A stretch of 64,000 bases of DNA from Moorena producens (GTDB lineage Bacteria > Cyanobacteriota > Cyanobacteriia > Cyanobacteriales > Coleofasciculaceae): assembly GCF_965240435.1 (NCBI RefSeq), contig NZ_CBDEKO010000003.1, one strand, 5' to 3'. Under the pieces are notes generated by a model. That model saw nothing but the letters and a program-made list of their open reading frames with translations. It had not been told where the DNA came from and ran no database searches. The translations under genes and the position numbers were made by a program. Shown here one piece after another: positions 2,676 to 43,957 of the stretch (position 1 is its first letter; every line of letters begins with the position of its first letter).

Positions 2676-2682
2676 AATATTT

Positions 2683-3567: not shown

Positions 3568-3680
3568 GTAATTTAATTCTATTTATGTTATGGTTTTCAG
3601 CTCACCTTAAAATAATCATTGCTACCTTTACTAATTACACAGATAATCAGCCTATTCAAATCAACTTTAAACTATTGATT

Positions 3681-6130: not shown

Positions 6131-6268
6131 CAGAAAAACTCCGGGAGTTTGGAAACCGCCGACTTCTAGTCACAGCAAAGGGCTTACACCGGAATTCATC
6201 TGTCCGCCTCCCTGGAGACTCCCGCTATAATCTTTGATTTAGCGGTGAGAGGAAAGGGAGGACAGGGT

Positions 6269-18500: not shown

Positions 18501-18947
18501 GAACCGTTCCCGCGACCAATCTACCGAGACCCCCAAACGCCTCAGCTGGTTAACGATGGTGCCACCTGATTCTTCCTTCCACTCCCAAGCCCGTTCAAGA
18601 AACTTTTCCCGTCCCAAGTCATAGCGGGTTTTGCCTTCAGCTTCTAGCTGTCTATCGAGAATGGTTTGTACAGCAATACTAGCGTGGTCAGTTCCTGGTA
18701 GCCACAGGGTATTGCGTCCTGTCATCCGGTGGTAACGGACGAGGGTGTCGATCAGAGCACTCTCGAAGGCGTGACCCATGTGCAACTTCCCAGTAACGTT
18801 AGGTGGGGGGATAACAACGCAATAGGGTTCACCCTGGTGATTGGGGTCAGCTTTGAAGACTTGGTTTTCTTCCCAGTATTGTTGCCACTTGGCTTCGGTG
18901 GTTTTCGGTTCGTATTTGGTTGCCAGGGTGGGTGTGGTTGCGGTCAT
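15592..18947 (-). CDS. valS: Valyl-tRNA synthetase with CAAD membrane-anchor insertion; reading frame broken by a 1-nt frameshift near 15797
   Basis: The 1061-aa ORF has class I HMGH ([15 protein letters not shown]) and KMSKS motifs. The separate 67-aa ORF 15592-15795 ([14 protein letters not shown]...) is the canonical ValRS C-terminal coiled coil. The joint ...TVQVLIPL|TGVVDVDAL needs one extra base. Confidence 0.85.
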
Positions 18948-24684: not shown

Positions 24685-25461
24685 ATGGCGACTAACCTTA
24701 ACCATAAACTTAAGTATCAAAGCTTAACATTATTACAAAATTACCAGCAATCTCCCACCGCTGAACTTCGCAATCAGCTAGTGGCTCTCAATTTAGGACT
24801 AGTCAGGAGAGAAGCTCATCATTGGGTCAAGCAGTGTCATGAAAGCTACGAAGACTTACTTCAGGTTGGCTGTATTGGCTTAATTGGTGCCATAGAACGA
24901 TTTGATTCCACCAAGGGCATCGCATTTAGTTCCTTCGCTATCCCCTACATTCGTGGTGAAATTCAGCACTATTTACGAGATCGGGGTTATTCAATTCGCA
25001 TTCCTCGACGCTGGCTAGCACTACGGCAAAAGTCTGTGGAAATTACTCGACATTTACGAGCAACGTTAAATCGGCAACCGACAGAAGAAGAAATAGCAGC
25101 AGCATTAAACATTTCCCTAGAAGAATGGCAAGAAATTACCCTAGCTCATCAAAATCGGGAACCTCTGAGCTTAGATACACCAGTGGGAGATTCAGAGGAC
25201 AGAAACACCAGCTTGGGTGAATTAGTCCCAGATCCTCGCTATCGCAGTTTTCAGCTGGCACAGGAAGACCAAATCCGCATTCAACAAGCCCTAGCTCATT
25301 TGGAAAAGCGCACTCGTGAAGTGCTGGAATTTGTTTTTTTACATGACTTGACCCAAAAAGAGGTAGCACAACGCTTAGACATCAGTGTAGTAACGGTATC
25401 CCGCCGCGTTAAAAAAGGCTTGGAAGCGTTGCAAAAGTTAATGAAACCGACACAAGATTAA
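24685..25461 (+). CDS. Group 3 (SigF/SigB/FliA-type) alternative sigma-70 factor
   Basis: ORF track 258 aa. Region 2 (LIGAIERFDSTKGIAFSSFAIPYIRGEI) and a region 4 HTH (LTQKEVAQRLDISVVTVSRRVKKGL). No region 1.1 or 3-rich segment. Confidence 0.8.
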   Translation: MATNLNHKLKYQSLTLLQNYQQSPTAELRNQLVALNLGLVRREAHHWVKQCHESYEDLLQVGCIGLIGAIERFDSTKGIAFSSFAIPYIRGEIQHYLRDRGYSIRIPRRWLALRQKSVEITRHLRATLNRQPTEEEIAAALNISLEEWQEITLAHQNREPLSLDTPVGDSEDRNTSLGELVPDPRYRSFQLAQEDQIRIQQALAHLEKRTREVLEFVFLHDLTQKEVAQRLDISVVTVSRRVKKGLEALQKLMKPTQD

Positions 25462-25617
25462 GATTAATTTTCACACTATTATTAGTTAAGCATAATAATA
25501 TAAAATTCTAGAAAATAATATACAGCTGGCAAAGTAACTGGACTTGAGAGCTAAGTCATAGCTGAAAAGCGCTTTGGGCTTCTTGAATTGGGTGTTATTG
25601 CCCATAGGCTGTCCATG

Positions 25618-25800
25618 TAAGTGTTCAGCTATCAGCTTAAGCGCTACGCGCACGCGTGCGCGTTCAGCTATCAGCTATCAGCTATTAGCTTATGGGTTAG
25701 GTTTCAGCATCGTTCGCACAGCGTGGCCATTCGCGTAGCGTGGCCAAAGGCCAAGGCCAAACCCTGGGCAACTCAAGTTGACGTGCTTTTGGATAAAATA
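25618..25800. repeat. Intergenic repeat block of the AGCTGAYAGCTGA tandem family plus GC palindromes (cgcgcacgcgtgcgcg; gcgtggcc...ggccaaaggcc)
   Basis: Read directly. The same family recurs at 27062-27120, 30598-30880, 31818-32000, 45538-45580, 53752-53822 and 61480-61530. Confidence 0.8.
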
Positions 25801-25967
25801 AGCTGACCACTGACGGCTGAGGGCTGACGGCTTACCGGCCCACAGCTTTTTGCTGAGAGTCTCCAGTTTTGCAAGTTTGCCAAAAAAATTCTATATTCAA
25901 AGAAGTTGGTGCCACAGATCGATAACTTCAAGTTCAAGGGTATGCTCGGATAAAGCGTTATTTTTAG

Positions 25968-27017
25968 GTGGTCATGGGTAAAGTATCATGCATCGTATGG
26001 GTGAGTGTACTGGCTCTGCTTATAGGAGGCTGTCAACCGGGTAGAAAGGCTGAACAGGGGGAGCAGACTACCCCTAAACCTACTCCGGTGGCTTCCCCGG
26101 ATAGCACCAAACCTTCTCCTCCTGTAGCTCAATTTGCTCCTAAACCCCCGGAAACACCAGAGCAGGAAAAGGTAATACCAATACCACCGTTGATCACAAC
26201 CTTGCCAAGCAATGAAATAAGAAATCGGATTGATAAGGGACGTCTTGACCCGTTTGCGGCAATTTCAGTGCAACCAGAGGTGGAGATTTTGCCCAATCCT
26301 GGCAGACCAAGTAGTTCCCCGACAAGGGTACAGCCTCTGACTCCTGCACCACGAACACCGGGTTTGCGATCGCGTCCTGGGACAGGAAGTAGTGTAGCGG
26401 TAAGACCCTCCAGCCCCTCAAGAGCTAGCAGACCCTCCAGCCCTTCCAGAGCTAGCCGAACCACCAGCCCTTCAAGAGCTAGCAGACCCTCCAGCCCCTC
26501 AAGAGCTAGCAGACCCTCCAGCCCCTCAAGAGCTAGCAGACCTTCTAGCCCTTCAAGAGCTAGCAGACCCTCCAGCCCTTCAAGCTCCTCAATCGCTAGA
26601 AAGTCTCCTGGCTCATCAAGAGGGAATGTTTTGCCAAGGCCCCAGAACACTCGATCTACAGAGACTAGCATTGCTAAACCTGGTTCACCACCAGACAATA
26701 GCTCTGTTGTCAAGGATGGTATCCCCCCTATCCCTCCTGAATTTGATCTGCAACTGCCAATCCTACCAGAACCAGAACTGGCCTATAATGTCAGTGTCAC
26801 AGGGGTAGTTGATAACGGTAGGGGTGTCTATTACGCTATCCTAGATGTCCCTAATGAGCCTAGTCGTAGCGTTCAAGTTGGACAGTTTATATTAGGTGGA
26901 CAAGTTCTAGTCAAGCGGATTGAAATGTATAGAGGTTTAGATCCAGTGGTGATTCTGGAAGAAAACGGTGTTGAAGTTTCTAGACGAGTTGGAGAAAACT
27001 CAACATCAGCTTCTTGA
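25968..27017 (+). CDS. Pro/Ser-rich repeat lipoprotein with possible C-terminal PilP-like beta domain
   Basis: Lipobox LLIGGC. Seven tandem RPSSPSRAS nonapeptides are encoded by a 27-bp DNA repeat (26396-26590). Globular C-terminal ~110 aa. Confidence 0.55.
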   Translation: MVMGKVSCIVWVSVLALLIGGCQPGRKAEQGEQTTPKPTPVASPDSTKPSPPVAQFAPKPPETPEQEKVIPIPPLITTLPSNEIRNRIDKGRLDPFAAISVQPEVEILPNPGRPSSSPTRVQPLTPAPRTPGLRSRPGTGSSVAVRPSSPSRASRPSSPSRASRTTSPSRASRPSSPSRASRPSSPSRASRPSSPSRASRPSSPSSSSIARKSPGSSRGNVLPRPQNTRSTETSIAKPGSPPDNSSVVKDGIPPIPPEFDLQLPILPEPELAYNVSVTGVVDNGRGVYYAILDVPNEPSRSVQVGQFILGGQVLVKRIEMYRGLDPVVILEENGVEVSRRVGENSTSAS

Positions 27018-27195
27018 AGTAACCTCAGGGTACAGTGTTAACTATTAGGTGTTAGGTAAGCATATGCGCTACGCGCAGGCTACGCCAACAGCTATCAGCT
27101 TTCAGCCGTCAGCCATTCCCCTAACACTAAATAATTGGTATTTCCAGCCATTGGGAGCATCCCAATGGTTTTAAATTATATAGGAGTGTAAACTA

Positions 27196-27474
27196 TTGCG
27201 TTATCAAATTAGTTGTCCTGGTTTACCCTTGGCAGTTTATCGAGAGGTAGCTGCCCATTTACGGCAAGTGACAGGAGTAAAAGCTGATTTACTACCCCAA
27301 ACATCCCAGCAGTTTGATTACAATCAGAGTCAGGTTGGTGGATTGTGGATTGAGTATGGCGAGACTACTGATAAAGTAGAAAGAGAACGGGTCAAGCAAA
27401 TTTTGTCCTATTATCAAAATCGCTATGGTGCCTGGGAAGAAGACACTTCCGATGGTGGACCGCAGCTCACATGA
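27196..27474 (+). CDS. Conserved hypothetical small protein
   Basis: ORF track 92 aa, directly upstream of hisS. No motif recognised. Confidence 0.35.
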   Translation: MRYQISCPGLPLAVYREVAAHLRQVTGVKADLLPQTSQQFDYNQSQVGGLWIEYGETTDKVERERVKQILSYYQNRYGAWEEDTSDGGPQLT

Positions 27475-28776: not shown

Positions 28777-28797
28777 GTCTTGAGTGTTGAGTTGCGT

Positions 28798-28899
28798 AGG
28801 GTGTGTTAGGGGAGCCTTGATATTTGGCCTCTAGCCCTTGGTTAGGTTGCTGCCCGTAACGCACCACTGCTGGTTCAAACAACTGTTAGGAGATGCACC
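28798..28899. repeat. Copy A of a ~102-bp dispersed element (second copy at 32660-32762)
   Basis: agggtgtgttaggggagcc...ggttaggttgctgcccgtaacgcaccactgctggttcaaacaactgttaggagatgcaccc, about 85-90% identical to copy B. A 10-bp-stem hairpin cttgagtgtt/aacactcaag follows. Confidence 0.75.
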
Positions 28900-29064
28900 C
28901 TTGAGTGTTCAGTGTTAACACTCAAGAACGTCGTATTATTTCGTAGTGACACATCAATGCTTTGAGATAAGTATGGGTATCCTTAGGTTATAAAGAAAGG
29001 GGTTAGCATCCTGAGGATGCTGCGCTACCTACCATCTCACCTGTAGAGTTCCCCAGCTACTGCT

Positions 29065-30594
29065 ATGCTACCAATACCGGATTACTTAATTGCCCTGACT
29101 GTAGTACTGGTGGTAATCCCATCAGTATTCGTAATTTTACTACGTTTTGCTCTCCATACCCATCTTTTATCCCTAGGGAAGCGAGTAAGAAGACTAATCC
29201 ATGGACAGCCTCGTGGGAAAAAACCCAGAATTGTAGAGGAGCTAGAAAGACGGTTCTCAGATGCTAGCCGACATTTAGAGCAGGTCAATACAGGCGCATT
29301 AATTGACCAAGCCTACAGCCACGAAAAAGTTGTTGGCATATCTTGTGACCAAATTGATTACATTGGTCGGATTATGCCTAGCTTACTGTTATCCTTTGGC
29401 TTACTAGGTACCTTTATCGGCATCACCATCAATTTGTTAGCACTCAGTCAAACAATCAGTCAGTCTGATGCTACCGATATCAATACTTTAGTTAACCAAT
29501 TACAGCAACCCCTAGAAGGGATGGGAATTGCTTTTACCACTAGCTTAACCGCTATCTTTTTTAGTGCTGTCTTAACGGTAATTAACGTCGCCTTCAATAC
29601 AGGGCTAGCGAAAAACAATCTAATTAGTTACTTAGAAGATTACTTGGATAATATTTATCAGCCGAGTTTAGCAGGGCAAACACGCCTGGATGTATTAGTT
29701 CAGGGGATGTCCAATATCTTTGAAAGCTTTTTGGCGAGATTTGGTCAGACTGTTCGAGAAGCAGTGGAATCATCACTACGAGAAAAAGTTCAAGAAATTG
29801 CTGATGCTAACACTCAAGTGCTTAAACTAGCAGAAAATTCTTACAATAGATTCTTCCAAGCTGCTAGTACTATCGCTAGAAGTGCTGAAGAATTTCAACT
29901 AGCTGCTGCTCAATTTACCCAAGTTGCTCAAACCTTTGAGCATAGCCAGTTTCCTCAAAAATTATCTAAGGCTACAGTAGATTTAACTAGAACCCAAAGC
30001 AGTTTCTCTGAGTCAGCCAGTATGTTATCTCAATCAGTGCAAGGCATGGGAGTAGCAATGGCTGAACTTCAACGTCATGGGGTGAAGTTGGTAAAATTGG
30101 CAGAAGAAATCAGTGCCCTCAGACAATCTTCTCTAGAAGTAGTAAAGCAGCATCATCACAGTCAACAAGCCCTAGGGAAGATTATCCCCCAACTTCAGCA
30201 AGGAGCACAGGGATTTCAGTCAGCGATCGCTCGACTTGATCAATTAGAGCAACGGATTGCTTCTCGAAGCGATAGCTTGAGTGACGTTCACGCTGAATTG
30301 GCTAAGTTAGTGTCAAATGTGAAAAGCTATACCGAAGGAGTAAGTCTGGGAATTCAGGCTTTAGGCGATCGCCTTGATCAAAGTATTACTCAGCAAGCTA
30401 ATACTGACCAGCATAATTATGAAATTATGCGACACAATCTTGAAAAAGTTGTCAATCATCTCAATAACACCAATCAGGAAATTGCTAAGATTAGCCAAAA
30501 ACTGACTGAGTCCAATCAAATCGATGGTTCAACTCGCATAACTCAAGATATGACTGTAGGAGAGCTAGTCAGGCGTTTGAGCAGTGAACGATAA
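29065..30594 (+). CDS. MotA/TolQ/ExbB-family proton-channel protein with ~320-aa C-terminal coiled-coil tail (ZorA-like)
   Basis: ORF track 509 aa. N-terminal TM helices, a MotA-type plug/TM3-4 region PSLLLSFGLLGTFIGI...GMGIAFTTSLTAIFFSAVL, then a long heptad-rich helical tail to the C-terminus. Confidence 0.7.
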   Translation: MLPIPDYLIALTVVLVVIPSVFVILLRFALHTHLLSLGKRVRRLIHGQPRGKKPRIVEELERRFSDASRHLEQVNTGALIDQAYSHEKVVGISCDQIDYIGRIMPSLLLSFGLLGTFIGITINLLALSQTISQSDATDINTLVNQLQQPLEGMGIAFTTSLTAIFFSAVLTVINVAFNTGLAKNNLISYLEDYLDNIYQPSLAGQTRLDVLVQGMSNIFESFLARFGQTVREAVESSLREKVQEIADANTQVLKLAENSYNRFFQAASTIARSAEEFQLAAAQFTQVAQTFEHSQFPQKLSKATVDLTRTQSSFSESASMLSQSVQGMGVAMAELQRHGVKLVKLAEEISALRQSSLEVVKQHHHSQQALGKIIPQLQQGAQGFQSAIARLDQLEQRIASRSDSLSDVHAELAKLVSNVKSYTEGVSLGIQALGDRLDQSITQQANTDQHNYEIMRHNLEKVVNHLNNTNQEIAKISQKLTESNQIDGSTRITQDMTVGELVRRLSSER

Positions 30595-30597
30595 ACC

Positions 30598-30880
30598 TGG
30601 CAAATCCTTAGCTGTCAGCCTTCAGCTGTCAGCCGTCAGCTGTCAGCCGTCAGCTAAAAGCTCACGCGTGCGCGTTCAGCTTAAAATAAACCTCTAAGCG
30701 TGAGAATTTAATAGTTCGAGAAAGTCTGGGAATTTGCCCATATAAGCATATGCCCTTAGCCCATAAGCTGATAGCTGAATGCTGATAACTGATAACTGAA
30801 TGCTGATAGCTGATAACTGAATGCTGATAGCTGAATGCTGATAGCTGAATGCTGAATGCTGAATGCTTACAGCAAATGAT
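30598..30880. repeat. Repeat array between the MotA-like and MotB-like genes (GCTGTCAGCC/AGCTGAATGCTGATA units, cacgcgtgcgcg palindrome)
   Basis: Read directly. About 280 bp, almost entirely repeats. Confidence 0.8.
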
Positions 30881-30916
30881 TAATAGTAATTATAAGATTG
30901 ACAGAGAATTGATAAA

Positions 30917-31771
30917 ATGCGTCGTTCACGAAATAATGATTGGAATGAAGAGATAAATCTCTGGCCAGCTTTTACAGACTTAATGTCTAATGCCTTCATG
31001 ATCCTGATCTTATTTTTGTTGCTCTCTATCCTGAAGTCTGTGCTGGCACAAACTTCCTTGGAATCAACCATTGATGATCTCACCAGAAGTGAAGATGAAG
31101 TGGTGCAATTGGCAAGGGAGAATGCCGAATTACGAGCTAAGGCAGCTCGGGTTGATCAACTTGAGCGTGGCGTAGCGGTTTGGAGAGCTAGGGCAAAGCG
31201 CTCAACTGTCCGCGAAAAGGCACTAGAACAGCAGGTTAGGTCTTTGCAGGTACAGATTGCTGCAGCACCAAAACCACCAGATACACCTCCGATTATTGTA
31301 ATCAAAGATCAGGGGGATTACCGATTTGATTCCGGTAGTGCGCAAATTCCATCAGCCATGAAAGACTATATTCGGCAGCAAATTGTCCCTGCTATTGAAA
31401 GCAATGCCAAAGACTATGAAATTAATGTAGTAGAACTGATTGGTCACACCGATGGTCAACCTAATCTTGGTGGTAGCAATATCGACCAAACTATTGGGAA
31501 TGTGGTTAATAAAAATTCCTCTATCAGTCAACTTAGACCAGGATCTAATGCTGATTTAGGACTGATGCGAGCTTTGGCAGTTGTGCAGTTACTCCGTGAG
31601 ATTCAAGCTAAGGAAGGGCGGCTCAAGGGGCTGCAATTTCGGGCTTATTCTGCAGCTCAGTTAATTTTACCTAATGGGCAAATTGCTCCGATTAGTTTAA
31701 AGGATGATCAAACTAGGCGCAGGATTGAAATTCGCTTTACTCGTCTCGGTAGGGTGACAAATGTTCAATAA
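30917..31771 (+). CDS. MotB/OmpA-family protein (ZorB-like stator partner)
   Basis: ORF track 284 aa. N-terminal WPAFTDLMSNAFMILILFLLL (the MotB/TolR-type TM with conserved Asp), a coiled-coil linker, and a C-terminal OmpA-like peptidoglycan-binding domain (INVVELIGHTDG). Confidence 0.7.
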   Translation: MRRSRNNDWNEEINLWPAFTDLMSNAFMILILFLLLSILKSVLAQTSLESTIDDLTRSEDEVVQLARENAELRAKAARVDQLERGVAVWRARAKRSTVREKALEQQVRSLQVQIAAAPKPPDTPPIIVIKDQGDYRFDSGSAQIPSAMKDYIRQQIVPAIESNAKDYEINVVELIGHTDGQPNLGGSNIDQTIGNVVNKNSSISQLRPGSNADLGLMRALAVVQLLREIQAKEGRLKGLQFRAYSAAQLILPNGQIAPISLKDDQTRRRIEIRFTRLGRVTNVQ

Positions 31772-31817
31772 TAGATGAACAGGAGACAATCTTGCTAATC
31801 TGGTAAGGAAAGATACG

Positions 31818-32000
31818 TCAGCTGTCAGCCCTCAGCTGTCAGCTGAATGGTTACAAAGATGGTAGTCATGAATTTGCGATCGCTAGCCAACGCCCTTCGG
31901 GCTAATCGCCTTTGGCGCGGCTGAGGCCTTTGGCCACGCTGCGCGTTCGCGTAGCGTCGGCTTTGCCGAAACGCCGATGAAGCGAAGCTTCCGCGCTTAT
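31818..32000. repeat. Intergenic repeat block (cagctgtcagc tandem units, gcgatcgc HIP1 sites, ggcctttggcc palindrome)
   Basis: Read directly. Confidence 0.75.
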
Positions 32001-32053
32001 GCGATCGCAAATTCATTGATTAGGCTTTCTATGGTGAACAAGGAATAATCGCC

Positions 32054-32635
32054 ATGACCTATGTCGTAGATAAACAAAAAGACCAACTGCTAGTCCACTC
32101 CGGGGTAAGTTGGCATAACTTCAAATCAATTCAAGCGGGGTTCGTCAACTCCCCAGGAATTCGACTGTTCTACTACAGGGGTGAGGTAGAAATATTGGCA
32201 GTTTCCCAAGAGCATGAAGCGTTCAGTGGTGTCATAGCACTGTTGCTGGGTACTTATTTTGTTGAAAAACAAATTGAGTTTACTCCAACCGGCAGCTTTA
32301 CCCAAGAGAAGGAAGGGGAAGCATCTGCACAAGCAGACCAATCTTACCTAATTGGTAGAGCGTCAGGAGTGATTGCAGACCTCTCTATTGAAGTTGTCTT
32401 TACCAGTGGTAACCAGAGCAAGCTAAATCGTTACCGAGCATTAGGAGTACCCGAAGTTTGGTTTTGGGAGGATGGTGTATTTGCTTTGTACCACTTGCGC
32501 TCTGATGGTTACGAAAAAATTTCCCAGAGTGAAGTCTTGCCAGATTTGGATATTGACTTATTGTCTCGGTGTCTGATGATGGCTTCCAAAGTTGAAGCGA
32601 TTAGGCACTTCAGACAAGCTATCTCTGAGACTTAG
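32054..32635 (+). CDS. Uma2 family (DUF820) PD-(D/E)xK-type putative endonuclease
   Basis: ORF track 193 aa. ADLSIEVVFTSGN...KLNRYRALGVPEVWFWE matches the Uma2 D/E/K core. Confidence 0.75.
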   Translation: MTYVVDKQKDQLLVHSGVSWHNFKSIQAGFVNSPGIRLFYYRGEVEILAVSQEHEAFSGVIALLLGTYFVEKQIEFTPTGSFTQEKEGEASAQADQSYLIGRASGVIADLSIEVVFTSGNQSKLNRYRALGVPEVWFWEDGVFALYHLRSDGYEKISQSEVLPDLDIDLLSRCLMMASKVEAIRHFRQAISET

Positions 32636-32659
32636 AAGAATCCTTAAGATTACGACAGT

Positions 32660-32762
32660 AGGGTGTGTTAGGGGAGCCCTCATTTTCCGCCTAGTAGTCA
32701 GGGTTAGGTTGCTGCCTGTAACCCACCACTGCTCGGTCAAACAACTGTTAGGAGATGCACCC
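32660..32762. repeat. Copy B of the ~102-bp dispersed element
   Basis: See copy A. Same orientation, again directly 3' of a plus-strand gene. Confidence 0.75.
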
Positions 32763-32819: not shown

Positions 32820-35800
32820 TTATTCCCTTTCTATCGGAGTCCAATCGCCAAAGAGAATAAAACTTGCCCAGTAAAAAGGATGTTGATATTCCTTACTCTT
32901 AAGCATTTCTAATTGAGTCTGACGCAAAGCTTCACTACGCCCCTGATTTGCCTTCAATCGTTGGTAATATTCAATCATCAGGTTTTTTGTTGCTATATCA
33001 TCTACTTGGCACAGGCTAACCAGTTGACTTTCTGTTCCAGCGATAACAAAGGCGCGACGCAGTCCATAGATTCCTTCCCCTATAGTGATATCTCCTAAAC
33101 CTGTCTCACAAGCGGATAAAACTACTAATTCTGTTCCCATTAGATCGAGTCCACTAACTTCTAAAGCTGTCAAAATCCCATCATCACCCCCACTTTGAGC
33201 AAAGTTAACCTCTGCCAATATTAACCCACTACGGAGCAAAGGATTCCCCACCTCGGTTTTGTCTTCAAAGAAGCTGTGAGTAGCCAGATGGAGAATACTA
33301 GGACTATTAACTTGTTTGAGGGCATTTTCCGTTGCTTGGGAACCGTTCAGAATTTCGGTATTTGGGAAAACTTGGGCAATGGCTTGTGCTTCCTCAGTCG
33401 TAGTTGGTAAGGGAGGAAATGACATCTGTGGGATGGAATAATTTGAGTTAGTAGCTAACCCTTCACCTAGTCCGTTATCGAGAGGATTGCCTTGTATATC
33501 GAGAGGATTGGCTAGTATCAATGGGGGTTGTTGGCTGGGGATTTTGCTTTGTAGTCGCAGTAAGTCTCGTCCAGAGGTTAGATAGGTGAAGTTGTAGTTT
33601 TCAATGAGATAGTGGTTATTTTCATCAACTAGAGCTTGAAAGGGAATCAGGCCAAGTATGCCATCAGGAGAAAGGAGGACATGACGGAAATCTTCTAGGG
33701 GATTATTTAAACCTTGGTAGGGTTTTCCTAGCAATTGTCGTACAGGCTGCATTACAAGAGCATCAAGTGTTCTGGAGGATTGCTTGAGTTGCTTGATGGG
33801 GTTATGTCTGTCTTGCAAACTAAAGCGGAAATCAACCAATGCCTGTTCGATGGCTTCTGCATCTCCTAAGTCTATCCCTTGTGGGTCCCCTTGTGGACGA
33901 AGGATGTAAGCAGCATAGCGAGGTTTACCAAAACCTTGGTTGAATGGAGCCTTAGGATTAAAGGGTCGGTATTGTACCAATTCCACTAACACAGCATTGG
34001 CAGGAATAAGTTTTTGAATAGCTTCTAGGGTGATGGGTTGGGACAGGGTACGAAATTCAGCACTGCGGCGGCTAATTTGGTTTTCGAGTTGGTGAGCTTC
34101 CGCTGTTAGGGTGTTGATTTGCTGGCGATATTGTTGGAGAGAAACATTATTTTCGGGTTTTTGGTAATATAGGTTGGCTAATTGGGTGCGAGTGTTGTTG
34201 AGTTGATCCAGTAACCTTTGGCTTTCAGGATCAATGAGCTGACGGAGAGTTTGTTGATTGTTGGCTAAGACATCGAGAATACGACCCTTGCGTTGTAACA
34301 CAGTAGTGAGAGCAAGACGAGCAGCATTTGAATCGTTTGGTGCAGATTGAAGGTGTAAAGATACGCTGGCATTTGTAGTCTCAGAGAAAGATGCTATGTA
34401 ATTAGCTTTTTGCCTTTCACTACCAGCGATAATATTTCCAGTAAGGTTATATTCTTCAATCTCAAGTCCTTTGATCAAAAAATCAATAGCATCAGCAATA
34501 TTGCCTTGAGCCCAGTAGAGTGTTGATAGGTTATTGAGGGTTTGTGCTACATCGGGATGGTCCTCTCCTAATAGTTTCTTTCTCAGAGCTAATGCTTGGT
34601 GATAGAGAGGTTCTGCCTCACCATACCTACCCTGGAAACTGTATAATTCAGCTAGGTTGTTGAGACTAGCTGCTACATCGGGATGGTTCTCTCCTAATAG
34701 TTTCTGTCTCAGGGCTAATGCGTGCTGATAGAGAGGTTCTGCCTCACCATACCTACCCTGGAAACTATACAAAGCAGCCAGGTTATTGAGACTAGCTGCC
34801 ACATCGGGATGGTCGCTTCCTAATAGTTTCTGTCTCAGGGCTAATGCGTGCTGATAGAGAGGTTCTGCCTCACCATACCTACCCTGGAAACTATACAAAG
34901 CAGCCAAGTCATTGAGACTAGCTGCCACATCGGGATGGTCGTCTCCTAATAGTTTCCGTCTCAGGGCTAATGCTTGCCGATATAAAGGTTCTGCCTCACC
35001 ATACCTACCTTGGAAACGGTACAGAGCAGCCAGGTTGTTGAGACTAGATGCTACATGGGGATGGTCTTGTCCTAATAGTTTCTTTATCAGGGCTAATGCT
35101 TGCTGATACAGAGGTTCTGCCTCACCATACCTACCTTGGAAACTATATAGAGCAGCCAGGTTGTTGAGACTATATGCCACATCGGGATGCTCATCTCCTA
35201 ATAGTTTCTTTCTCAGGGCTAATGCTTGCTGATACAGAGGTTCTGCTTCAGCATACCTACCCTGGAAACTATACAGTTCAGCTAGGTTATTGAGACTAGC
35301 TGCCACATCAGGATGGTCGTCTCCTAATAGTTTCTTTCTCAGGGCTAATGCTTGCTGATAGAGAGGTTCTGCTTCAGCATACCTACCTTGGAAACTATAC
35401 AGAGCAGCCAAGTCATTGAGACTAGCTGCCACATCGGGATGGTCGTCTCCTAATAGTTTCCGTCTCAGGGCTAATGCTTGCTGATACAGAGGTTCTGCCT
35501 CAGCATACCTACCTTGGAAACGGTACAGAGCAGCCAGGTTGTTCAGACTAGACGCTACATCGGGATGGTCTTGTCCTAATAGTTTCTGTCTCAGGACTAA
35601 TGCTTGCTGATACAGAGGTTCTGCCTCAGCATACCTACCCTGGAAACTATATAGAGCAGCCAGGTTGTTGAGACTAGCCGCCACATCAAGATGGTCTTGT
35701 CCTAATAGTTTATTCCTAGTATCTAAAGCCTGCTGATAGAGAGGTTCTGCCTCACTGTATCTCCCTTGGAGACTATATAGGTTGGCTAGGTTGGTAAGTA

Positions 35801-38800
35801 CTGCTGCTTCTCCTATAGAATCGGCAATTTTTATACTAATAGCTAAAGCTTGCTTATAAAAGGTGATTCCTTTCTCATACTGTCCTAGGTTGGCATAAGC
35901 TTCTCCCAAGTTATTGAGGTTTAAGCTTTCTGTACTGCGATCGCCAATCTCTCTGCTGATAGCTAAAGCTCGTTCATAGAAAGCAATTGCTTTATTATAC
36001 TGTCCTAGATTGACATAAATAGCCCCCAAATTTAAGAGGTTTAAGCTTTCTGTCCTGCGATCGTCAATCGCTCTGCTGAGGGGTAAAGCTTTTTGATAGT
36101 AATCAATTGCCTTCTGATACTCTCCTAGATTGGCATAAGCTTCTCCCAAGTTATTGAGGTTTAAACTTTCTGTCCTGCGATCGCCAATCTCTCTGGTGAT
36201 AGCTAAAGCTTGTTGATAGTAATCAATTGCCTTATTATACTCTCCTAGATTGGCATAAGCTTCCCCCAAGTTTAAGAGGTTTAAGCTTTCTGTACTGTGA
36301 TCACGAATCTCTCTGGTGATAACTAAAGCTTGTTGATAGTAATCAATTGCCTTATTATACTCTCCTAGAGTAGCATAAGTAGCCCCAATATTTGTAATAA
36401 TTTGTACTTCTAATCCACGATTACCACTATCTCTTGCAAGATGCAAACCTGTTTTAAAATCCTCTAATGCTGCTTTAAATTGACCTTTATTATATTTTTC
36501 AACACCAGTTTTAAGTAAACTTTGAATCTCTTCATCAGTGGCTTGATATCTGGCATCATTTGGAGGAATGAAAGGAATATTAGTATTGCGTGTGATATTT
36601 AGAAATACCGAAGAAGGAATTGCTAATCTACCGCGACTTTTTTCTATAGTGATGCCAATACTCTGTACCCTAGCTTTTATTTGCTGATGAGTTGCAGTGA
36701 ATTGCTGAACATCTACCTGCACAGTGACAAGAGTGTCAGAATCTCTTTCTGTAGCTAGTTCGACCTTATTTTCTAATTCATCAAGTAAATCTAGAGTTTG
36801 ACGTAATGAGTCTGTCGCTGAATTGAGTTTTTTCTCTACTGCTAGTAGTTTATTTTCAGCTTCCTGTTGTTCTTCTCTTGCTATTTTGGCTTCATATCGT
36901 GCATCTTGTACTCTTGCGGTCACTTCTGTCAATTGTTGATCAGCTTCTTGAATCTGCCGTTCCTTGTCCTTAATTTTTATTTGAGCTTCTTCAGTAACTT
37001 GCTTGAGGCGTTTCCTTTCGGCAATTAAGTCTTCATCAATCTGCTGTAATTTCTGCTCTGCATCCTGACGTGCTGAATCGGCTTCTAGTTGAATCTGCCT
37101 TGCTTTTTCTGCTTGCCGCTCTGCTTGCTCTTGATTACTAACTGCTGTTTGTAGTTTTTGTTCTGTTTCATCAACTAATTTTTCTAATTCATTTTTCTCT
37201 TGTAACAAACGATTTTTATCCGTTTTTAATCTCTTTTTTTCTAGATTTTGTTGTTTCTGCATTTCCTGAAGTTGGTATGTAGCATCAACATTAAATTGCT
37301 GGAAGCGTTCCTTTTCGGCAATTAAGTCTTGATTAATTTGCTGTAATTTCTGCTCTGCATCCTGACGTGCTGAATCGGCTTTTAGTTGAATCTGCCTTGC
37401 TTTTTCTGCTTGCTGCTCTGCTTGCTCTTGATTACTGACTGCTGTTTGGAGTTTTTCTTTGGTTTCATCAACTAATTTTTCTAATTCATTTTTTTCTTGT
37501 AACAAACGATTCTTATCCGTTTCTAATCTCTTTTTTTCTTGGCGTTTCTGTTTATGTATTTCCTCAAGTTGGTATTTAGCATCAACTAATTTCCGGTTGG
37601 CTCTACTGGCTAATATTATTGCGGAGCCTGCTCCTAATAGAGATATTGTGAGCACAATAAAACCCATACGCATTCTCTGAGCAGCTCTGTTTTGAGCCTT
37701 AGTTAGAATCTTATTGGCTTCTTTCTCAGCATTCAGAGCTAGTTCAGCACTGCGTTTCTCCAATTCTTGACTAGCAGCTAAAAACTGATAATCTAAATCA
37801 ATCAAGCTTTTATCCTTTGCCCATGCTTGAGCAGTCTGTAATGTCTGCCCTGTTAACAGCCGGGATTGATCTTGAAAATTAGAAGCTAACCAAGCCTGTA
37901 TTGACTCAGAGTAGGGGCGCAGGTGTTCTAATTCTTTTTCAAAAAAACTCTGATCAAAAACAGCTTCATAAATGCGGTTATAAACTCTTAATTTGCCATT
38001 CTGTTTAATTACCAAGCCCGACAGCCGCAATTCAACTTGCTCAAGACTGTCATCTGTAGTTATTTCTCGATGCTGCCAAATTTGCTGATAAAGTCCCAGC
38101 CGCCGTCCCAACCTTTGCTGATTCGAGAGAAGGCGATTACGGATGGTTCTCAAATGTTCTGGATTATCTTGAGATTCCCAATTTTCAATCAATCTGGACT
38201 GCACAAGTTGTTCGACCCACTCAGCTTCCTCTCCAATCGGAATAGGGGACTCAGATACAGAAATAAGTTGGCAAAGCTTTTGGGTCAAAAAAGGTTGACC
38301 CCCTGTCCAAACCAACACCTCTTTTAAAACTGTCTGAGGATTCCCGGTTTTAAGGGCTAAACCCCTGGCTAAGGGCTGAGCTTCATGGAGTTTAAAGCCA
38401 CAGGGTTCTATGGCTTTTCCAATGTTGAAAGGAGTGCGGTTTTTGTTTTGAATAAAATCCGAAGGTGTAGCAACTCCTAACAGGGCAAAGGTGAGACGTT
38501 TGTAGGCCGGTTTATCTACCCGCTGGTTGTAACAAGACCGAATAAAAGCAAAAAAATCGTCAGTAGAAAAATTTAAGCTGAGGACACTATCAATTTCATC
38601 AATAAAGATGACAATATGTTCATGTATTTCTTCTAGCAAAACTTCCTCAATAAACTCGCTCAAGCGCTGCACGGGAGATTCTAATTGCCGCTCCTTCCAC
38701 CACTTTCTGCGGTTAATTTTTCCTAATAGCTCAAACTCACTAACCAACTCATAGAACACTGCCATATACCAACCAACTGGGGTCACGTTTTCACTCCCAA

Positions 38801-39035
38801 TAGTGGTTAGGTCGATAGCAGCACAACTTACCCCTTCTTGCTCCAGCCTTTGCATCGTTCGCACTCGTAGGCTGGACTTACCCATCTGCCGCGAGTTGAG
38901 CACATAACAAAATTCCCCAGCCTTCACTCCCTCATAAAGCTCTTGGTCTGCTTGACGCACAACATAGGTAAGGGAATCAGCCGCTAGGCTTCCGCCAACT
39001 TGATATTGATAGACTGGGCTTTTTTCTGTACTCAT
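32820..39035 (-). CDS. Giant AAA-like NTPase / TM / coiled-coil / TPR / CHAT (caspase-like protease) protein
   Basis: ORF track 2071 aa. N-terminal AAA-like domain ([10 protein letters not shown] Walker A-like, [11 protein letters not shown] Walker B). One TM helix. A tandemly duplicated ~95-aa coiled coil. Three or more classical TPRs plus 12 near-identical 42-aa kinesin-light-chain-type TPRs ([36 protein letters not shown]). A C-terminal CHAT domain with His (LHLATHS) and Cys ([10 protein letters not shown]). Confidence 0.85.
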
Positions 39036-39096
39036 CTCACTGGTAAATTTCCTTTGTTTTATCTAAATTTATTTTTAGGAAAAACAGATGGGTCAG

Positions 39097-40404
39097 TTAT
39101 AGATGTTGGCGGAAATACTTAGAATATAAGTCGCAGCGAGGCTTGACATCGTTACCTTCAAGTATTACTAACCCAAGGCTTTGTAACTTAAAGCCTTGGG
39201 TTGCTTCTAATTGCACAGGTTGAGTAACCTCAACAACCTTTTTCATCGCTGTAGCCAGTTCTGGATACTGTCGTAAATTACACAAATGTCCGCGCAGATG
39301 ACTGCTGTAAATTCCTGATTCTGTGTGTGCAGTTTGCAGGAATCCTTCAAAAGTGATTTCCTGATTGGTTAGACAATAGATGGCTCGCTGTACCCGATAA
39401 GGATGACCTCCTACCAAGGACATGAGTTGGTTAACTTGTGAACTGTCCCAATCGAGTCCCTGCCGCTTGCCTAAATCCTGTACCTGTTCTTGGCTAAACT
39501 CTGGTAAGTCTATTGCTATTCCAACATTGAAGGGGGAATGATTGAGATTGAGGGGAATATAAACTTCTGTGGAGTGGGCAACAATTAAGCGCAATTTTTG
39601 CCAGAGTGGGCGACTCTTAGCTTTCTCATGCCAAGCTCTCAACATCCCCAAAAAGTCCCCAGCAAAGGGAACTCCAAAAACCCGATCTACTTCATCTATG
39701 ACTAAAACCAGAGGACTATTTATTTGAGTCAACAGATGTTGCTCAAAATAAAGGGTGCAGTTATAGCTGCTACCGAAACCCTCCTCCCAGTAATCCGCCA
39801 GTTGCGTCGGTAATCCTAACTGCCGACAAACTACAACACAAAACCAGCGCAAGAATTCATCTAGCCCTTGCAAAACTGCTCCATCTGCCAGCAAGAGGCT
39901 CAAGGACACTGTACGATAATTGTGCTTGAGTGCCTTGGCTAGAATCCGATCAATTAACCAGGTCTTACCCATCCGCTTAGAACCTTTAATGCGCAGTAGG
40001 GAACCTGGCTGTTTGATAGTTTTAAAGCACCGAGATTCGATGGGAGGTCGCTCGACGTAGTTGGGAACCTCTGGTTCTACTTCAATCTCAGCAAGTGCCA
40101 GTGTAGCTTCTTCACATTCCGCTTCCCTGCCTAGGGAGGTGTCTTCAGTGCTGTTATCATCAAAATCGGCTATTTTTTCCCAGTCTTGAGCCAATCGGCT
40201 GCAAATTTCCCAAAAATTCAAATAATCGACAGGTCTGCCATTGAGAAAATTACTCACAGTGGATAAAGATAGCTGTAAATCTTGTGCTAGGTCTTGCTGG
40301 CGTGCAAAGCGATGACGCCTGAGAGCTGATTTGACTTGTTTAATGTACTGGGGAGCAACTTTGAGCGACCTTGACATGGCGCATAATTGAGCAACTTTTC
40401 TCAA
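39097..40404 (-). CDS. HTH (XRE-like) + AAA-like domain NTPase
   Basis: ORF track 435 aa. N-terminal HTH DLAQDLQLSLSTVSNFLNG. GSKRMGKTWL Walker A-like and LVLVIDEVDRV Walker B. Same AAA-like family as the N-terminus of the downstream giant gene. A 61-bp gap suggests an operon. Confidence 0.75.
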   Translation of the reverse strand: MRKVAQLCAMSRSLKVAPQYIKQVKSALRRHRFARQQDLAQDLQLSLSTVSNFLNGRPVDYLNFWEICSRLAQDWEKIADFDDNSTEDTSLGREAECEEATLALAEIEVEPEVPNYVERPPIESRCFKTIKQPGSLLRIKGSKRMGKTWLIDRILAKALKHNYRTVSLSLLLADGAVLQGLDEFLRWFCVVVCRQLGLPTQLADYWEEGFGSSYNCTLYFEQHLLTQINSPLVLVIDEVDRVFGVPFAGDFLGMLRAWHEKAKSRPLWQKLRLIVAHSTEVYIPLNLNHSPFNVGIAIDLPEFSQEQVQDLGKRQGLDWDSSQVNQLMSLVGGHPYRVQRAIYCLTNQEITFEGFLQTAHTESGIYSSHLRGHLCNLRQYPELATAMKKVVEVTQPVQLEATQGFKLQSLGLVILEGNDVKPRCDLYSKYFRQHL

Positions 40405-40939: not shown

Positions 40940-43900
40940 ATGGCTAAGAAGTACTGGGAATTTCTACTACAGAAAGAGGGGGAGCGCTCCTGGAAGCCAA
41001 TCAAGTCTTCTGAGATTGAGATTGAATCTGGTCGGTATCGGATAGTGGCTCGTTCCAACCTGCCCAATACTGATGTAGAAATTTGCGTCACCTATGATAG
41101 CAAAGAGCAAGTGCCACCCAGACGTAAGTCCCAGAGGCGATGGCGTCGCACCAACTCAGAAGGGTTAATGGTGGTGATTCCTTTCACCAAGCTTAAACCT
41201 GGTCTGTGGAAGTTACGTTGCAGTAACGATATCATGGACGATTTTATGGGTCAGTCCTGGCGAAAATCCTTAGGGCTACAAGTTATACCCAAAGTCAAAG
41301 ATGTAGAGACACCCCCTAAAACCTCTGTATCCACCCCAGTAGAATCCACCCCAGTAGAATCCACCCCAGTAGAATCCACCCCAGTAGAATCCACCCCAGT
41401 AGAATCCACCCAAACTGATACTCAGCCGCCTCAACTAGACAATTCACTGACTACACCTGAGCTAGCTGTTGATTCTGCCTCCACCAATACTATTACTAAT
41501 GACCTGAAAGCAACAGATGCTAGTTCAGATGCTAGTTCAGATGCTAGTTCAGAGTTTTCTAACCCTCAGGACTACCAGAGTGAGATCACACCACCAGAAG
41601 AACAACCCATAACCATTGCTGCGCCAGAGTTACTTGACCAAGCAAAAGCAGCAATGGGGGTTAGCCAAGAGGAATCTAGTCCTAGTCAAGAGACGGTTTG
41701 GCAAGGGGTAGAAGAGGTTGACCCAAAGGCACCTGTTAATCCTGAAACCAACCAACAACCAACAGCAACTATCTCCCAAGACTTACCACTCCAATCGACT
41801 GTTGATAATTCCATCATGGAAGAATCTCTGGAGACTTTGGAGCAACTACTACAACAGGTGCTTCAGCCAGTATTGGATGAGTTGGAAGATCGGGACTCTG
41901 AAGATAACCAACAGCTAAGAAAAACCTCTGATTTAGATTGGGTTTCAGATACACAGGTTAATCAGTACGGTTTAACCCTAAGACTAGATAAGGATATTTT
42001 CCTGGCAAGGCGAGGAGAGTCGTTGACTATCAAAGGGGAATTGGTAGTAGATAATGATAAAATTAATAAGAATGGTGATAGTATAACAGTTAGTGTTTTA
42101 GATAGTGTTCTAGAAAACTTATTCCCTGCTACTCTACGCTATCAATTGCGGTTTCCTCAAACAGGAAAACGTTTGTTAGATATTGAGTACTCCCTATCTC
42201 AAGAGGAGTTATTTTTAGGATTTAGCCATAGTATAGATATTCCGACGGATTGTAAAAGTGGTCTAATTTTAGGAAAAATAACCCTTTATAATTCACAGTC
42301 AACTCCTTTAGCCACTCAACAATTTACTGTTACAGCTAATGTAGAGGATTTATTAGAAGTAATTGTGCCAGGGAATCAGGGGATGCCAATGGAAACCATG
42401 GTAGTACTGGCTAATCGGATCGCTGAATCTGCAAAATCTGATCAACCTGATCAAGAACTTCTCTTCTTAGATGAAGACCCCTTAGAGGAGACTACGCTGG
42501 ATCTGGTTGAGCTACCTCAAAACCATCCATCTCTGTTCTTGCAACCGATCTCTGGACGGTCTTTACCACCAAAACTTTACCACCATCAGCCGAGTGATAT
42601 AACTGTTAAATCCCTCGAATTGCCCAGTTTGCCTACAATGCAGTCGGTTGCTGACTCTGGAGCACAGGGCCAAGACCTCCAAGATCAGTCTAAAGCATCT
42701 GATTCAGTTTCCCTAGATGATCAAGAATCCTCCACTACAGCCAATCCAGAACTAGATAATCGAGAGCAAGATACTGGGTCAGAGTTACAGCCTCAAGACA
42801 CAGTGCTTCAAGACACAGTGCTTCAAGACACAGTAGTTCAAGACACAGTAGTTCAAGACACAGTAATTCAAGACACAGTAGAACAGTCGGAAGATAGTTC
42901 AGAAGATACTAATGACGATAGTAATTTACAGATAAAGTCTGAGGTCTTATCTAATTATAATGATGCTTCTGAAGTGCTGATTAATTCCCTAACGGAATCT
43001 GAGGGAATCCAAAATCTTGAGATTAGTGAGATTGATAAATCTGAAACAGATGATCAGTTAGAGGATTCACAATCGGTTAATACCCAGTTCAAGAATTCCA
43101 AGGTAAACCAATTATTGAATACTACTCGGTGGGAGACTCGAGATTCTGTAAAAGATCCTGAGTCAATCGCTTTAGAAGAAGCTTTCCGAGCTTTAAACAT
43201 GGAAGAGCGTTTTTGGTCACGGTTGAGTGCTTTAGCTGAAGATCATGAATTGATGGAATTGCTGAGGTTAGAATTATCCCCAGAGAGTAATCCTCCTGGG
43301 CAAGATCACTCATCAGTGACAAACGAACAGAGCAATAAAACGGCTAGCAACGAAGAAGAGGTTAGGGAATTTCCAGAAAAGGTCTTGGAGTCAATGACAG
43401 AATCTGAGGATTTGTCGCTAGTTAGTTCAGAATTAGCAATGCCAGAAACACCCCCTAAAGTTGGTATTACTAGTCACGATTGGACGACTCAGGAAATTGT
43501 AGTGGATGATCGAGAAATAGCCCCACAACCGACAAAAGCTACTGCAACCAAGCAACATGACGTTAAGGCTAAACTGGATAATCTTTCATCCCTAGAGTTG
43601 GATGCGACCTTAGCAGCACCGACTTTATCAATACCGACTACTAGGGACTTGGTTGCTGGAGAAAAGGTAATGGTAACCATAAAACTTCCTCCTAGTCAAT
43701 CTCGCTTATGTATTAAATTGTGGGTTAAAGACGTCCAAACTCGCTCTCTGCTCCAGGAAACCCGTTCTATTATAGATTTACTCCCCAATGCGGCTGGGGA
43801 GCTGGAGGCAATGACTCAATTAGTTATACCCCAAGGCACGACTCAAATTAGAATAGAAGCGATCGCAATTAATTTGGAAAATCAGCAGGAGAGTCACAAG

Positions 43901-43957
43901 GCGGAGTTGGAGTGTGTAGTTATTCCTACTGACTTATCGAGTACGGTTGAAGGATGA
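40940..43957 (+). CDS. Large acidic low-complexity protein with pentapeptide tandem repeats, unknown function
   Basis: ORF track 1005 aa. Structured basic N-terminal ~115 aa. (STPVE)x5, (SDAS)x3, (QDTV[LVI])x6. Globular-looking C-terminal ~120 aa. No signal peptide. Confidence 0.55.
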   Translation: MAKKYWEFLLQKEGERSWKPIKSSEIEIESGRYRIVARSNLPNTDVEICVTYDSKEQVPPRRKSQRRWRRTNSEGLMVVIPFTKLKPGLWKLRCSNDIMDDFMGQSWRKSLGLQVIPKVKDVETPPKTSVSTPVESTPVESTPVESTPVESTPVESTQTDTQPPQLDNSLTTPELAVDSASTNTITNDLKATDASSDASSDASSEFSNPQDYQSEITPPEEQPITIAAPELLDQAKAAMGVSQEESSPSQETVWQGVEEVDPKAPVNPETNQQPTATISQDLPLQSTVDNSIMEESLETLEQLLQQVLQPVLDELEDRDSEDNQQLRKTSDLDWVSDTQVNQYGLTLRLDKDIFLARRGESLTIKGELVVDNDKINKNGDSITVSVLDSVLENLFPATLRYQLRFPQTGKRLLDIEYSLSQEELFLGFSHSIDIPTDCKSGLILGKITLYNSQSTPLATQQFTVTANVEDLLEVIVPGNQGMPMETMVVLANRIAESAKSDQPDQELLFLDEDPLEETTLDLVELPQNHPSLFLQPISGRSLPPKLYHHQPSDITVKSLELPSLPTMQSVADSGAQGQDLQDQSKASDSVSLDDQESSTTANPELDNREQDTGSELQPQDTVLQDTVLQDTVVQDTVVQDTVIQDTVEQSEDSSEDTNDDSNLQIKSEVLSNYNDASEVLINSLTESEGIQNLEISEIDKSETDDQLEDSQSVNTQFKNSKVNQLLNTTRWETRDSVKDPESIALEEAFRALNMEERFWSRLSALAEDHELMELLRLELSPESNPPGQDHSSVTNEQSNKTASNEEEVREFPEKVLESMTESEDLSLVSSELAMPETPPKVGITSHDWTTQEIVVDDREIAPQPTKATATKQHDVKAKLDNLSSLELDATLAAPTLSIPTTRDLVAGEKVMVTIKLPPSQSRLCIKLWVKDVQTRSLLQETRSIIDLLPNAAGELEAMTQLVIPQGTTQIRIEAIAINLENQQESHKAELECVVIPTDLSSTVEG

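Follow-up and report, generated by a model that had tools for sequence, protein, structure and literature searches.

A ZorA/ZorB-like gene pair of Moorena producens, probably an orphan form of the cyanobacterial vWA-FtsZl1-B7-MotB operon, beside an unrelated Uma2 gene

We analysed a 64,000-nt stretch of the Moorena producens genome (NCBI RefSeq assembly GCF_965240435.1, contig NZ_CBDEKO010000003.1), hereafter the window, in which three genes follow one another on the plus strand between positions 29065 and 32635. The first two encode membrane proteins, here called A and B, that resemble the ZorA and ZorB subunits of the Zorya anti-phage systems, and the third encodes a Uma2-family protein. The original prediction, made from the sequence alone, had taken the three genes for a candidate defence module with Uma2 as a non-canonical effector. 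The resemblance of A and B to ZorAB is borne out in both family and fold. The two genes form an old, chromosomal, vertically inherited cyanobacterial pair, and Uma2 has no relation to them and was acquired recently, at a variable spot 3' of B. The features of the locus, in window coordinates, are the following.

27196-27474, plus strand: orf92, a small conserved gene without family match, placed by synteny and marking the ancestral locus
28796-28900, plus strand: copy 1 of a ~105-nt hairpin-forming repeat, 20 nt past the hisS stop codon
29065-30594, plus strand: A, an open reading frame (ORF) of 509 aa, ZorA-like subunit of a putative 5:2 motor, family 'B7' of Makarova & Koonin 2010
30595-30916, no strand: A-B spacer with heptamer tandem arrays of STRR (short tandemly repeated repetitive) type
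30917-31771, plus strand: B, an ORF of 284 aa, MotB/ZorB-like partner of A
32054-32635, plus strand: an ORF of 193 aa, Uma2-family PD-(D/E)xK protein, outside the conserved unit
32658-32762, plus strand: copy 2 of the ~105-nt hairpin-forming repeat, 23 nt past the Uma2 stop codon

An ORF check of the window returned the three genes at exactly the coordinates first claimed for them, with start codons consistent with the N-termini of their homologues, and the two repeat copies that had been said to flank A-B-Uma2 were verified at the positions listed.

The family of A was examined by hidden Markov model (HMM) searches. Among the PADLOC models its best match was ZorA1 (6e-13), and the NCBIfam model ZorA_2 was matched at 5e-8 with 32.4 bits, far under its cutoff of 100; a Pfam scan returned no MotA_ExbB domain. 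When a profile of 16 homologues was run against all PDB sequences, the best natural match was E. coli ZorA (8qyd, 3e-6), chain 8vvi_F, described in its database entry as belonging to the type II ZorAB complex of Sulfuricurvum, was also matched (2e-3), and no ExbB, TolQ or MotA appeared at E<=1. Modelled with AlphaFold2 (AF2) on 56 homologues, A is predicted with confidence over residues 1-250. A has three transmembrane (TM) helices (TM1 ~7-29, TM2 ~102-127, TM3 ~152-176), and residues ~30-100 make up a cytoplasmic domain that lies close to the membrane and includes a short beta-hairpin. Comparison of the AF2 model with the PDB using Foldseek placed four ZorA entries on top (probability 0.97-1.0), ExbB/TolQ next and MotA/PomA far lower.

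Behind TM3, residues ~180-509 form an all-helical tail of ~330 aa (helical from 179 to 508 in the model). The tail had been described as one continuous, heptad-rich helix on a MotA-type protein. Its length and helical nature stand, together with the likeness to ZorA, which is the best match by both sequence and fold; its continuity does not, the AF2 model showing four long helices (207-290, 297-400, 405-443 and 449-485). Hydrophobic residues recur with a marked period of 3.5-3.67 residues in ~190-270 and 345-480 (z up to 10), but only weakly so in ~260-340; over the whole tail, z is 3.7.

B consists of an N-terminal TM helix, a coiled-coil linker of ~80 aa and an OmpA/MotB-C domain at ~124-276. 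The TM aspartate Asp21, which lies in the motif WPAFTDLMSN, does not vary among 17 homologues, and neither do the motifs GHTD, GSNADLGLMR and RRRIE.RF, which we read as a probable OmpA-like peptidoglycan-binding signature. B matches the PADLOC ZorB1 model over its full length (4e-9). Against the curated ZorB1 cutoff of 400 bits it scores 15.6, far too low. Searched against the PDB, its profile found PomB (5e-5), E. coli ZorB over the TM part only, and 8vvn_B, a MotB-related chain of a Shewanella type I ZorAB complex. A single-sequence model of B, of low confidence, matched the periplasmic domain of H. pylori MotB (3s06, 1e-5) as well as OmpA-like domains in Foldseek. The claim of a MotB-like protein with a TM aspartate and an OmpA-like peptidoglycan-binding domain is therefore borne out by the invariant residues and by the PomB, MotB and ZorB matches, and the proposed check of the pair against ZorA and ZorB profiles likewise came out positive, although the ZorA_2 and ZorB1 scores lie under the curated cutoffs.

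An HMM alignment of A to ZorA was then read against the residue numbering of the Zorya structure paper (PMC11946911), from which the roles of the ZorA and ZorB residues are taken. Invariance of the three A residues was judged in 56 sequences. The equivalences are:

A-P105, invariant: ZorA P136, kink in the cytoplasmic-domain helix
A-T116, invariant: ZorA T147, ion-selectivity filter
A-S160, invariant: ZorA S184, ion-selectivity filter
B-D21, invariant: ZorB D26, essential aspartate

The ZorAB-like nature of A and B thus rests on the HMM, PDB-profile and fold matches together with the conserved residues of the ion path, and their motor mechanism is, by analogy, probably that of ZorAB. As another candidate for the relationship of A, the septal coiled-coil protein SepT (All2460) was rejected: it has a different TM count (two N-terminal TM helices) and different neighbours, namely P-loop NTPase genes, and is restricted to heterocyst formers.

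To describe the distribution of the pair, a pattern scan was made with one genome per species; it found relatives in 185 species, and the neighbourhood work started from the 80 best loci. Window proteins were mapped onto the loci and all neighbours were clustered (83 loci; 86 in the ORF scans). The best 80 loci with A relatives are all cyanobacterial, and so are all named members among 651 homologues of A, one of which, from M. producens, is 100% identical to it. A and B stand side by side, in the same orientation, in 81 of the 83 loci, almost every one of which is from a different species; the other two are cut by contig ends. Within Moorena, A is 96-99% identical and B 95-98%, comparable with the adjacent hisS (98%) and with sigF and psbO, which show similar values. 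A neighbour-joining tree made from the first 300 residues of A, its conserved part, recovers the genera as monophyletic, and none of 72,556 plasmids and 50,697 phage genomes matched A in a tblastn search. We conclude that A-B is inherited vertically, on the basis of its confinement to cyanobacteria among the best loci, its near-constant adjacency, the monophyly of genera, its housekeeping-like divergence and the lack of a plasmid or phage homologue.

The surroundings of the pair are equally stable. The gene order in Moorena is psbO, sigF, a gene for a proline-rich protein, orf92, hisS, A, B, where the sigF product matches NCBIfam SigF with 411 bits, the proline-rich protein carries SRPSSPSRA tandem repeats and orf92 has no family match in HMM scans. 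From Moorena to Nostocales, the order sigF, proline-rich gene, orf92 (24685-27474 in the window; loci L051, L056, L061 and L066) is conserved directly 5' of the A-B unit, with or without vWA and FtsZl1 genes in front of A. Nostocales have sigF, proline-rich protein, orf92, vWA, FtsZl1, A, B, and Okeania and Trichodesmium have HTH, orf92, A, B; orf92 lies 5' of A-B in Moorena, Hormoscilla, Okeania and Trichodesmium, and 5' of vWA-FtsZl1-A-B in Nostocales. The defence-island context that had been supposed for the locus is accordingly not seen: A-B is syntenic across genera, with the housekeeping genes psbO, sigF, orf92 and hisS in conserved order on its flank.

These comparisons connect the pair to an operon that was tabulated in 2010. 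The supplement of Makarova & Koonin 2010 (PMC2875224) lists an operon of COG2304 (vWA), FtsZl1, B7 and COG1360/OmpA, with members such as Ava_1847-1850, N9414_10338-10353, Cyan8802_4287-4290 and Tery_1709/1707/1706/1705, and a cassette with two tandem B7 genes in Microcystis NIES-843 (MAE_58760-58800). There, B7 is given only as a 'membrane-associated protein' (representative Ava_1849), a membrane-remodelling role is proposed for the system, and its vertical inheritance in cyanobacteria is noted. The ZorA-like nature and the tail of B7 went unrecognised in that account. A 2023 review still counts Tubulin_2 proteins as uncharacterised, and our literature search found no functional study of the A/B family and no text naming both 'Zorya' and 'tubulin-like'.

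In our sample, a Tubulin_2 gene (~1083 aa, full-length Pfam domain PF13809, 5e-111), corresponding to FtsZl1, lies directly 5' of A in 39 loci, including all Nostocales sampled as well as Microcoleus, Kamptonema, Aerosakkonema and Stigonema, and A of the window is ~50% identical to the Nostocales proteins encoded directly 3' of FtsZl1. The FtsZl1 gene is usually preceded by one for a ~345-390-aa protein with a vWA-type DxSxS motif and one TM helix, and about half of the homologous loci hold the full cassette of vWA, FtsZl1, A and B. The vWA protein has no Pfam, NCBIfam or PADLOC match, although its conserved C-terminal ~100 aa look FHA-like by eye; FtsZl1 matched no PADLOC model either. At L081 (5529-6671), L055 (2518-3603), L084 (5790-6962), L085 (5865-6983) and L086 (5823-6983), the vWA protein has the motif DLTES. 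The best 80 loci had suggested that the system is specific to filamentous cyanobacteria, an idea that was dropped: the four-gene cassette also occurs in the unicellular Gloeocapsopsis dulcis and a Crocosphaera, as well as in Planktothrix rubescens, and the 2010 tables include Microcystis and Cyanothece.

In the window, hisS rather than FtsZl1 adjoins A on the 5' side, and no vWA gene is adjacent. All such orphan pairs form one clade nested among the linked ones in the neighbour-joining tree, comprising Moorena, Hormoscilla, Lyngbya/Limnoraphis/Arthrospira, one Planktothrix and Okeania/Trichodesmium/Dapis. Given the flanking order shared with Nostocales, the orphan pair sits at the ancestral locus, from which vWA and FtsZl1 were lost in situ. 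Orphan and linked forms differ in length: A has a median of 486 aa in orphan and 546 aa in linked loci, and B measures 281 versus 220 aa, the extra part being mainly the periplasmic coiled-coil linker. Trichodesmium erythraeum IMS101 carries a linked cassette (Tery_1705-1709) at 2.59 Mb and an orphan pair at 4.24 Mb (L062, NC_008312), hence the two forms can coexist. Separately, in Iningainema tapete (L063) FtsZl1 is split (1722-3923 and 5772-6827) by a ~1.8-kb insertion and B lies ~2 kb away from A, a cassette that may have been caught during disruption.

The gene that follows B has a quite different history. Its assignment to Uma2 is sound, with a Pfam PF05685 score of 36.2 bits against a cutoff of 27, and it matches the PADLOC candidate PDC-S17 over its full length (1.8e-67), a model whose defence role is putative. 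The order A-B-Uma2 is found in four Moorena genomes; in Moorena sp. SIO3H5 (L002) Uma2 is missing and the order is A, B, 1015-aa gene, and in Moorena SIO3I8 (L005) Uma2 is cut down to 83 residues. Outside the genus, Uma2 follows B in none of more than 70 loci, and a phmmer scan of all ORFs in the 86 loci found only two further, unrelated placements of Uma2. No match to ZorC, D, E, F or G was obtained in HMM scans of the window neighbours and the homologous loci. The conserved trio of MotA-tail protein, MotB-like protein and Uma2 that had been anticipated is thus reduced to a conserved pair with a neighbour confined to part of one genus, and with it goes the support for Uma2 as an effector; this is the outcome that the original prediction had named in advance as refuting it. 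Since the synteny of A-B is shared across orders, the pair is older at this locus than Uma2.

Further downstream, this strain carries a block of ~7.6 kb on the minus strand (32820-40404) with a gene for a 2071-aa protein of AAA_35, coiled-coil, TPR and CHAT parts and one for a 435-aa AAA_35 protein. The other Moorena loci lack it and have, within ~250 bp after Uma2, a homologue of the window gene at 40940-43957; the block is an insertion specific to this strain, with NTPase/CHAT genes of conflict-system type. Apart from the window, just 4 of the 86 loci have AAA_35/CHAT genes near the pair, and we take their linkage with A-B to be chance. With both the AAA_35 block and Uma2 varying and the flanks of A-B fixed, the region downstream of B is best described as a strain-variable spot, with A-B itself belonging to no island. 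The product of the gene at 40940-43957 is acidic, of low complexity and 1005 aa long, and carries TPVES and QDTV repeats in tandem; a homologue of the gene lies 3' of A-B(-Uma2) in all Moorena genomes sampled. We considered whether this protein is related to alr2044/Ava_4731 (1015 aa), which accompanies a second type of FtsZl1, and rejected the idea, since it is acidic and of low complexity, matches no family and shows no sign of a link.

Repeats accumulate in both spacers. Heptamer arrays of STRR type occupy 30610-30655 and 30766-30867 between A and B, and also crowd the 282-bp spacer between B and Uma2, which is repeat-rich and contains a palindromic element. The A-B spacing is 322 bp here, ~260-330 bp in L001, L003 and L005, and ~53 bp in L002 and L004; the STRR insertion hence sits inside a presumed operon and is strain-variable. 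The 149-bp element at 31868-32016, between B and Uma2, has perfect 16-nt inverted-repeat ends containing HIP1 (ATGAATTTGCGATCGC / GCGATCGCAAATTCAT), and a minus-strand ORF at 31825-32016 that covers it is probably spurious. The two copies of the ~105-nt repeat are 86% identical and the sole ones in the window; each folds as a long imperfect hairpin right after a stop codon (hisS and Uma2, respectively), with no covariation support. Copy 1 is kept after hisS in all five other Moorena genomes (L001-L005, near 6730-6840); a full copy 2 is seen in this strain alone, the others having a ~45-nt partial copy or none there. The element may be terminator-like or of the repetitive extragenic palindrome (REP)/miniature inverted-repeat transposable element (MITE) type. 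An Rfam scan of 27-34 kb gave no match, and a scan for promoters and terminators gave counts not above those of shuffled sequence. Elsewhere in the window, a minus-strand gene at 13179-14570 encodes an IS605 OrfB/TnpB-type protein with OrfB_IS605 and Cas12f1-like TNB domains, and another at 15762-18947, also on the minus strand, a class I aminoacyl-tRNA synthetase with a cyanobacteria-specific CAAD membrane-anchor insertion (PF14159).

Taken together, A-B is probably a chromosomal, vertically inherited, ZorAB-like 5:2 ion-driven complex, the orphan form of vWA-FtsZl1-B7-MotB, with Uma2 as an unrelated neighbour. By homology with ZorA5B2, MotA5B2 and ExbB5D2, five A subunits would surround a dimer of B. 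Protons would pass through the filter formed by A-T116 and A-S160 to B-Asp21 and turn A around B, which would itself be tethered to peptidoglycan by its coiled-coil linker and OmpA-like domain. The tail of A (~330 aa; ~45 nm if fully extended) would relay a signal or torque to a cytoplasmic partner. In linked cassettes the vWA-TM protein and the FtsZl1 GTPase would jointly be the most plausible choice; in Moorena, an FtsZl1 whose gene lies at another place in the genome could play this part. Family and fold, the conserved ion-path residues and peptidoglycan-binding motifs, the phyletic and syntenic pattern and the lack of a conserved nuclease partner are observed. The stoichiometry, the rotation, the signalling through the tail and the biological role, namely a coupling of the envelope state to the cytoplasm, are what we infer from these analogies. 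Vertical inheritance and fixed synteny lead us to favour a housekeeping, cell-biological role as an envelope-to-cytoplasm transducer. We put forward more tentatively, as a possibility, that tail-bearing motors of ZorAB type serve in more than phage defence, that this ancient cyanobacterial version couples the state of the peptidoglycan and envelope through its tail to FtsZl1 and the vWA protein as a proton-powered transducer from envelope to cytoskeleton, and that the orphan pair acts on FtsZl1 in trans or on a new client.

Several observations weigh against this account. No FtsZl1 homologue was found across the 64-kb window, and two FtsZl1 protein searches named no Moorena among the best 120 matches listed. 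The AF2 model of the tail is weak, with a predicted local distance difference test (pLDDT) score below 50 for residues 255-385, as is expected of a monomer removed from an oligomeric bundle. The subunit ratio, ion flow, peptidoglycan binding and tail function proposed for A and B are extrapolated from ZorAB, MotAB and ExbBD. Genes that are candidates for defence, Uma2/PDC-S17 and the AAA_35-TPR-CHAT block, stand just 3' of B in this strain, and the similarity to ZorAB is compatible with a function of the whole family as an immune sensor.

The last of these points can be developed into an alternative in which the family itself, whether linked to vWA-FtsZl1 or not, serves in immunity as a sensor of phage or of envelope breaches, fixed in the chromosome and with effectors that are not nucleases or are encoded in trans; as in Zorya, peptidoglycan anchoring upon envelope perturbation would be signalled through the tail, with FtsZl1 polymerisation or membrane remodelling as output. 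Its closest characterised relatives are indeed ZorAB, the ion path is conserved, the length of the A tail varies by internal duplications, and the few AAA_35/CHAT genes near A-B fit it too. vWA proteins, FHA-like domains and large GTPases are also common in conflict systems. We nevertheless consider this sensor, although a serious rival, unlikely, as single-locus vertical inheritance, housekeeping synteny and the absence of plasmid or phage copies are atypical of defence, neither FtsZl1 nor the vWA protein matches a PADLOC model, and A-B diverges within Moorena about as much as the housekeeping genes beside it. The three-gene version, in which A-B senses phage and Uma2 is the effector, is very improbable, and the Uma2-effector model as such is nearly excluded. 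It can draw on the likeness to ZorAB, on the strong PDC-S17 match, on the common strand and the four Moorena genomes with the trio, and on the AAA_35/CHAT genes that adjoin in this strain. Against it stand the loss of Uma2 in SIO3H5 and its truncation in SIO3I8, its absence after B outside Moorena, the spacer of repeats and palindromic element that parts it from B, and the greater age of A-B at the locus; moreover, PDC-S17 is itself a putative single-gene candidate.

A function in motility or secretion, with A-B as the stator-like energiser of a surface machine for gliding, pilus-associated motility or secretion (cf. MotAB, AglRQS, GldLM), appears improbable. SigF controls pilus and motility genes in cyanobacteria, so that the conserved sigF synteny speaks for it, as do the MotB-type architecture of B and the many host taxa that glide. 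However, the pair is also found in Dolichospermum, Crocosphaera and Gloeocapsopsis, which are non-gliding or planktonic, A is of the 3-TM ZorA/ExbB type and not of the 4-TM MotA type, motility stators have no counterpart to the long cytoplasmic tail, and no conserved pilus or secretion genes adjoin the pair. That the orphan pair might be a functionless remnant, decaying since the loss of vWA-FtsZl1, is suggested by the missing partner genes and by the shorter A, but is extremely improbable, given intact ORFs in ~35 species, the invariant motor residues and peptidoglycan-binding motifs, the near-identity of A among Moorena species, and Trichodesmium, which keeps an orphan pair beside a linked cassette.

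The ZorAB-like, vertically inherited pair therefore represents a tail-bearing 5:2 motor outside the context of Zorya defence; its family was tabulated in 2010, and its ZorA likeness is new here. Zorya is the sole characterised 5:2 motor with a long cytoplasmic tail, which is thought to signal to nucleases. A-B constitutes a sister family fixed in cyanobacterial chromosomes, which has kept the motor residues and has a tubulin-like GTPase and a vWA protein instead of nucleases as genomic partners. If the proposed coupling is true, it would provide a function for the FtsZl1 family, which has been without one since 2010, and would widen the view of what tail-bearing ion motors do. For annotation, similarity to ZorAB plus a nearby nuclease is insufficient to call a locus 'Zorya-like defence', especially in cyanobacteria, where Uma2 is widely reported.

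Among known systems, MotA/MotB and PomA/PomB share with the pair the periplasmic domain of B and its TM aspartate, but MotA has four TM helices, a FliG-binding cytoplasmic domain and no tail, and ranks under ZorA and ExbB as a fold match to A. Cyanobacteria have, to our knowledge, no flagellar genes; none was found in the window, and A, with its three TM helices, is not a flagellar stator subunit. ExbB/ExbD and TolQ/TolR resemble the pair in their 3-TM A-type subunit and provide the second-best fold matches to A; unlike B, however, ExbD and TolR have no OmpA-like domain, and the ExbB/TolQ systems lack a long tail, work with TonB or TolA as partners and show no sequence-level match to A. The vWA-FtsZl1-B7-MotB operon (PMC2875224) contains the same components, A being of the B7 family and B its COG1360/OmpA-like protein; the window pair differs in having no vWA and FtsZl1 genes beside it, as an orphan paralogue or derivative.

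Zorya is the closest of all, ZorA being the best match to A among solved structures. ZorA and ZorB (E. coli type I, 8qyd; type II, 8vvi) share with A and B an ExbB-like subunit of three TM helices, whose cytoplasmic part comprises a domain next to the membrane and a long helical tail, the MotB-like subunit with its TM aspartate and peptidoglycan-binding domain, and the ion-filter threonine and serine together with the kink proline. The differences are as consistent: A and B score far below the curated ZorA and ZorB thresholds, the tail of A measures ~330 aa against ~500 aa in E. coli ZorA, and B, unlike ZorB, has a long periplasmic coiled-coil linker. Where Zorya loci encode ZorC/D, ZorE or ZorF/G, none of these partner genes stands beside A-B, which, unlike Zorya, is inherited vertically in fixed synteny, without plasmid or phage copies, and which ancestrally goes with genes for a vWA protein and a tubulin-like GTPase.

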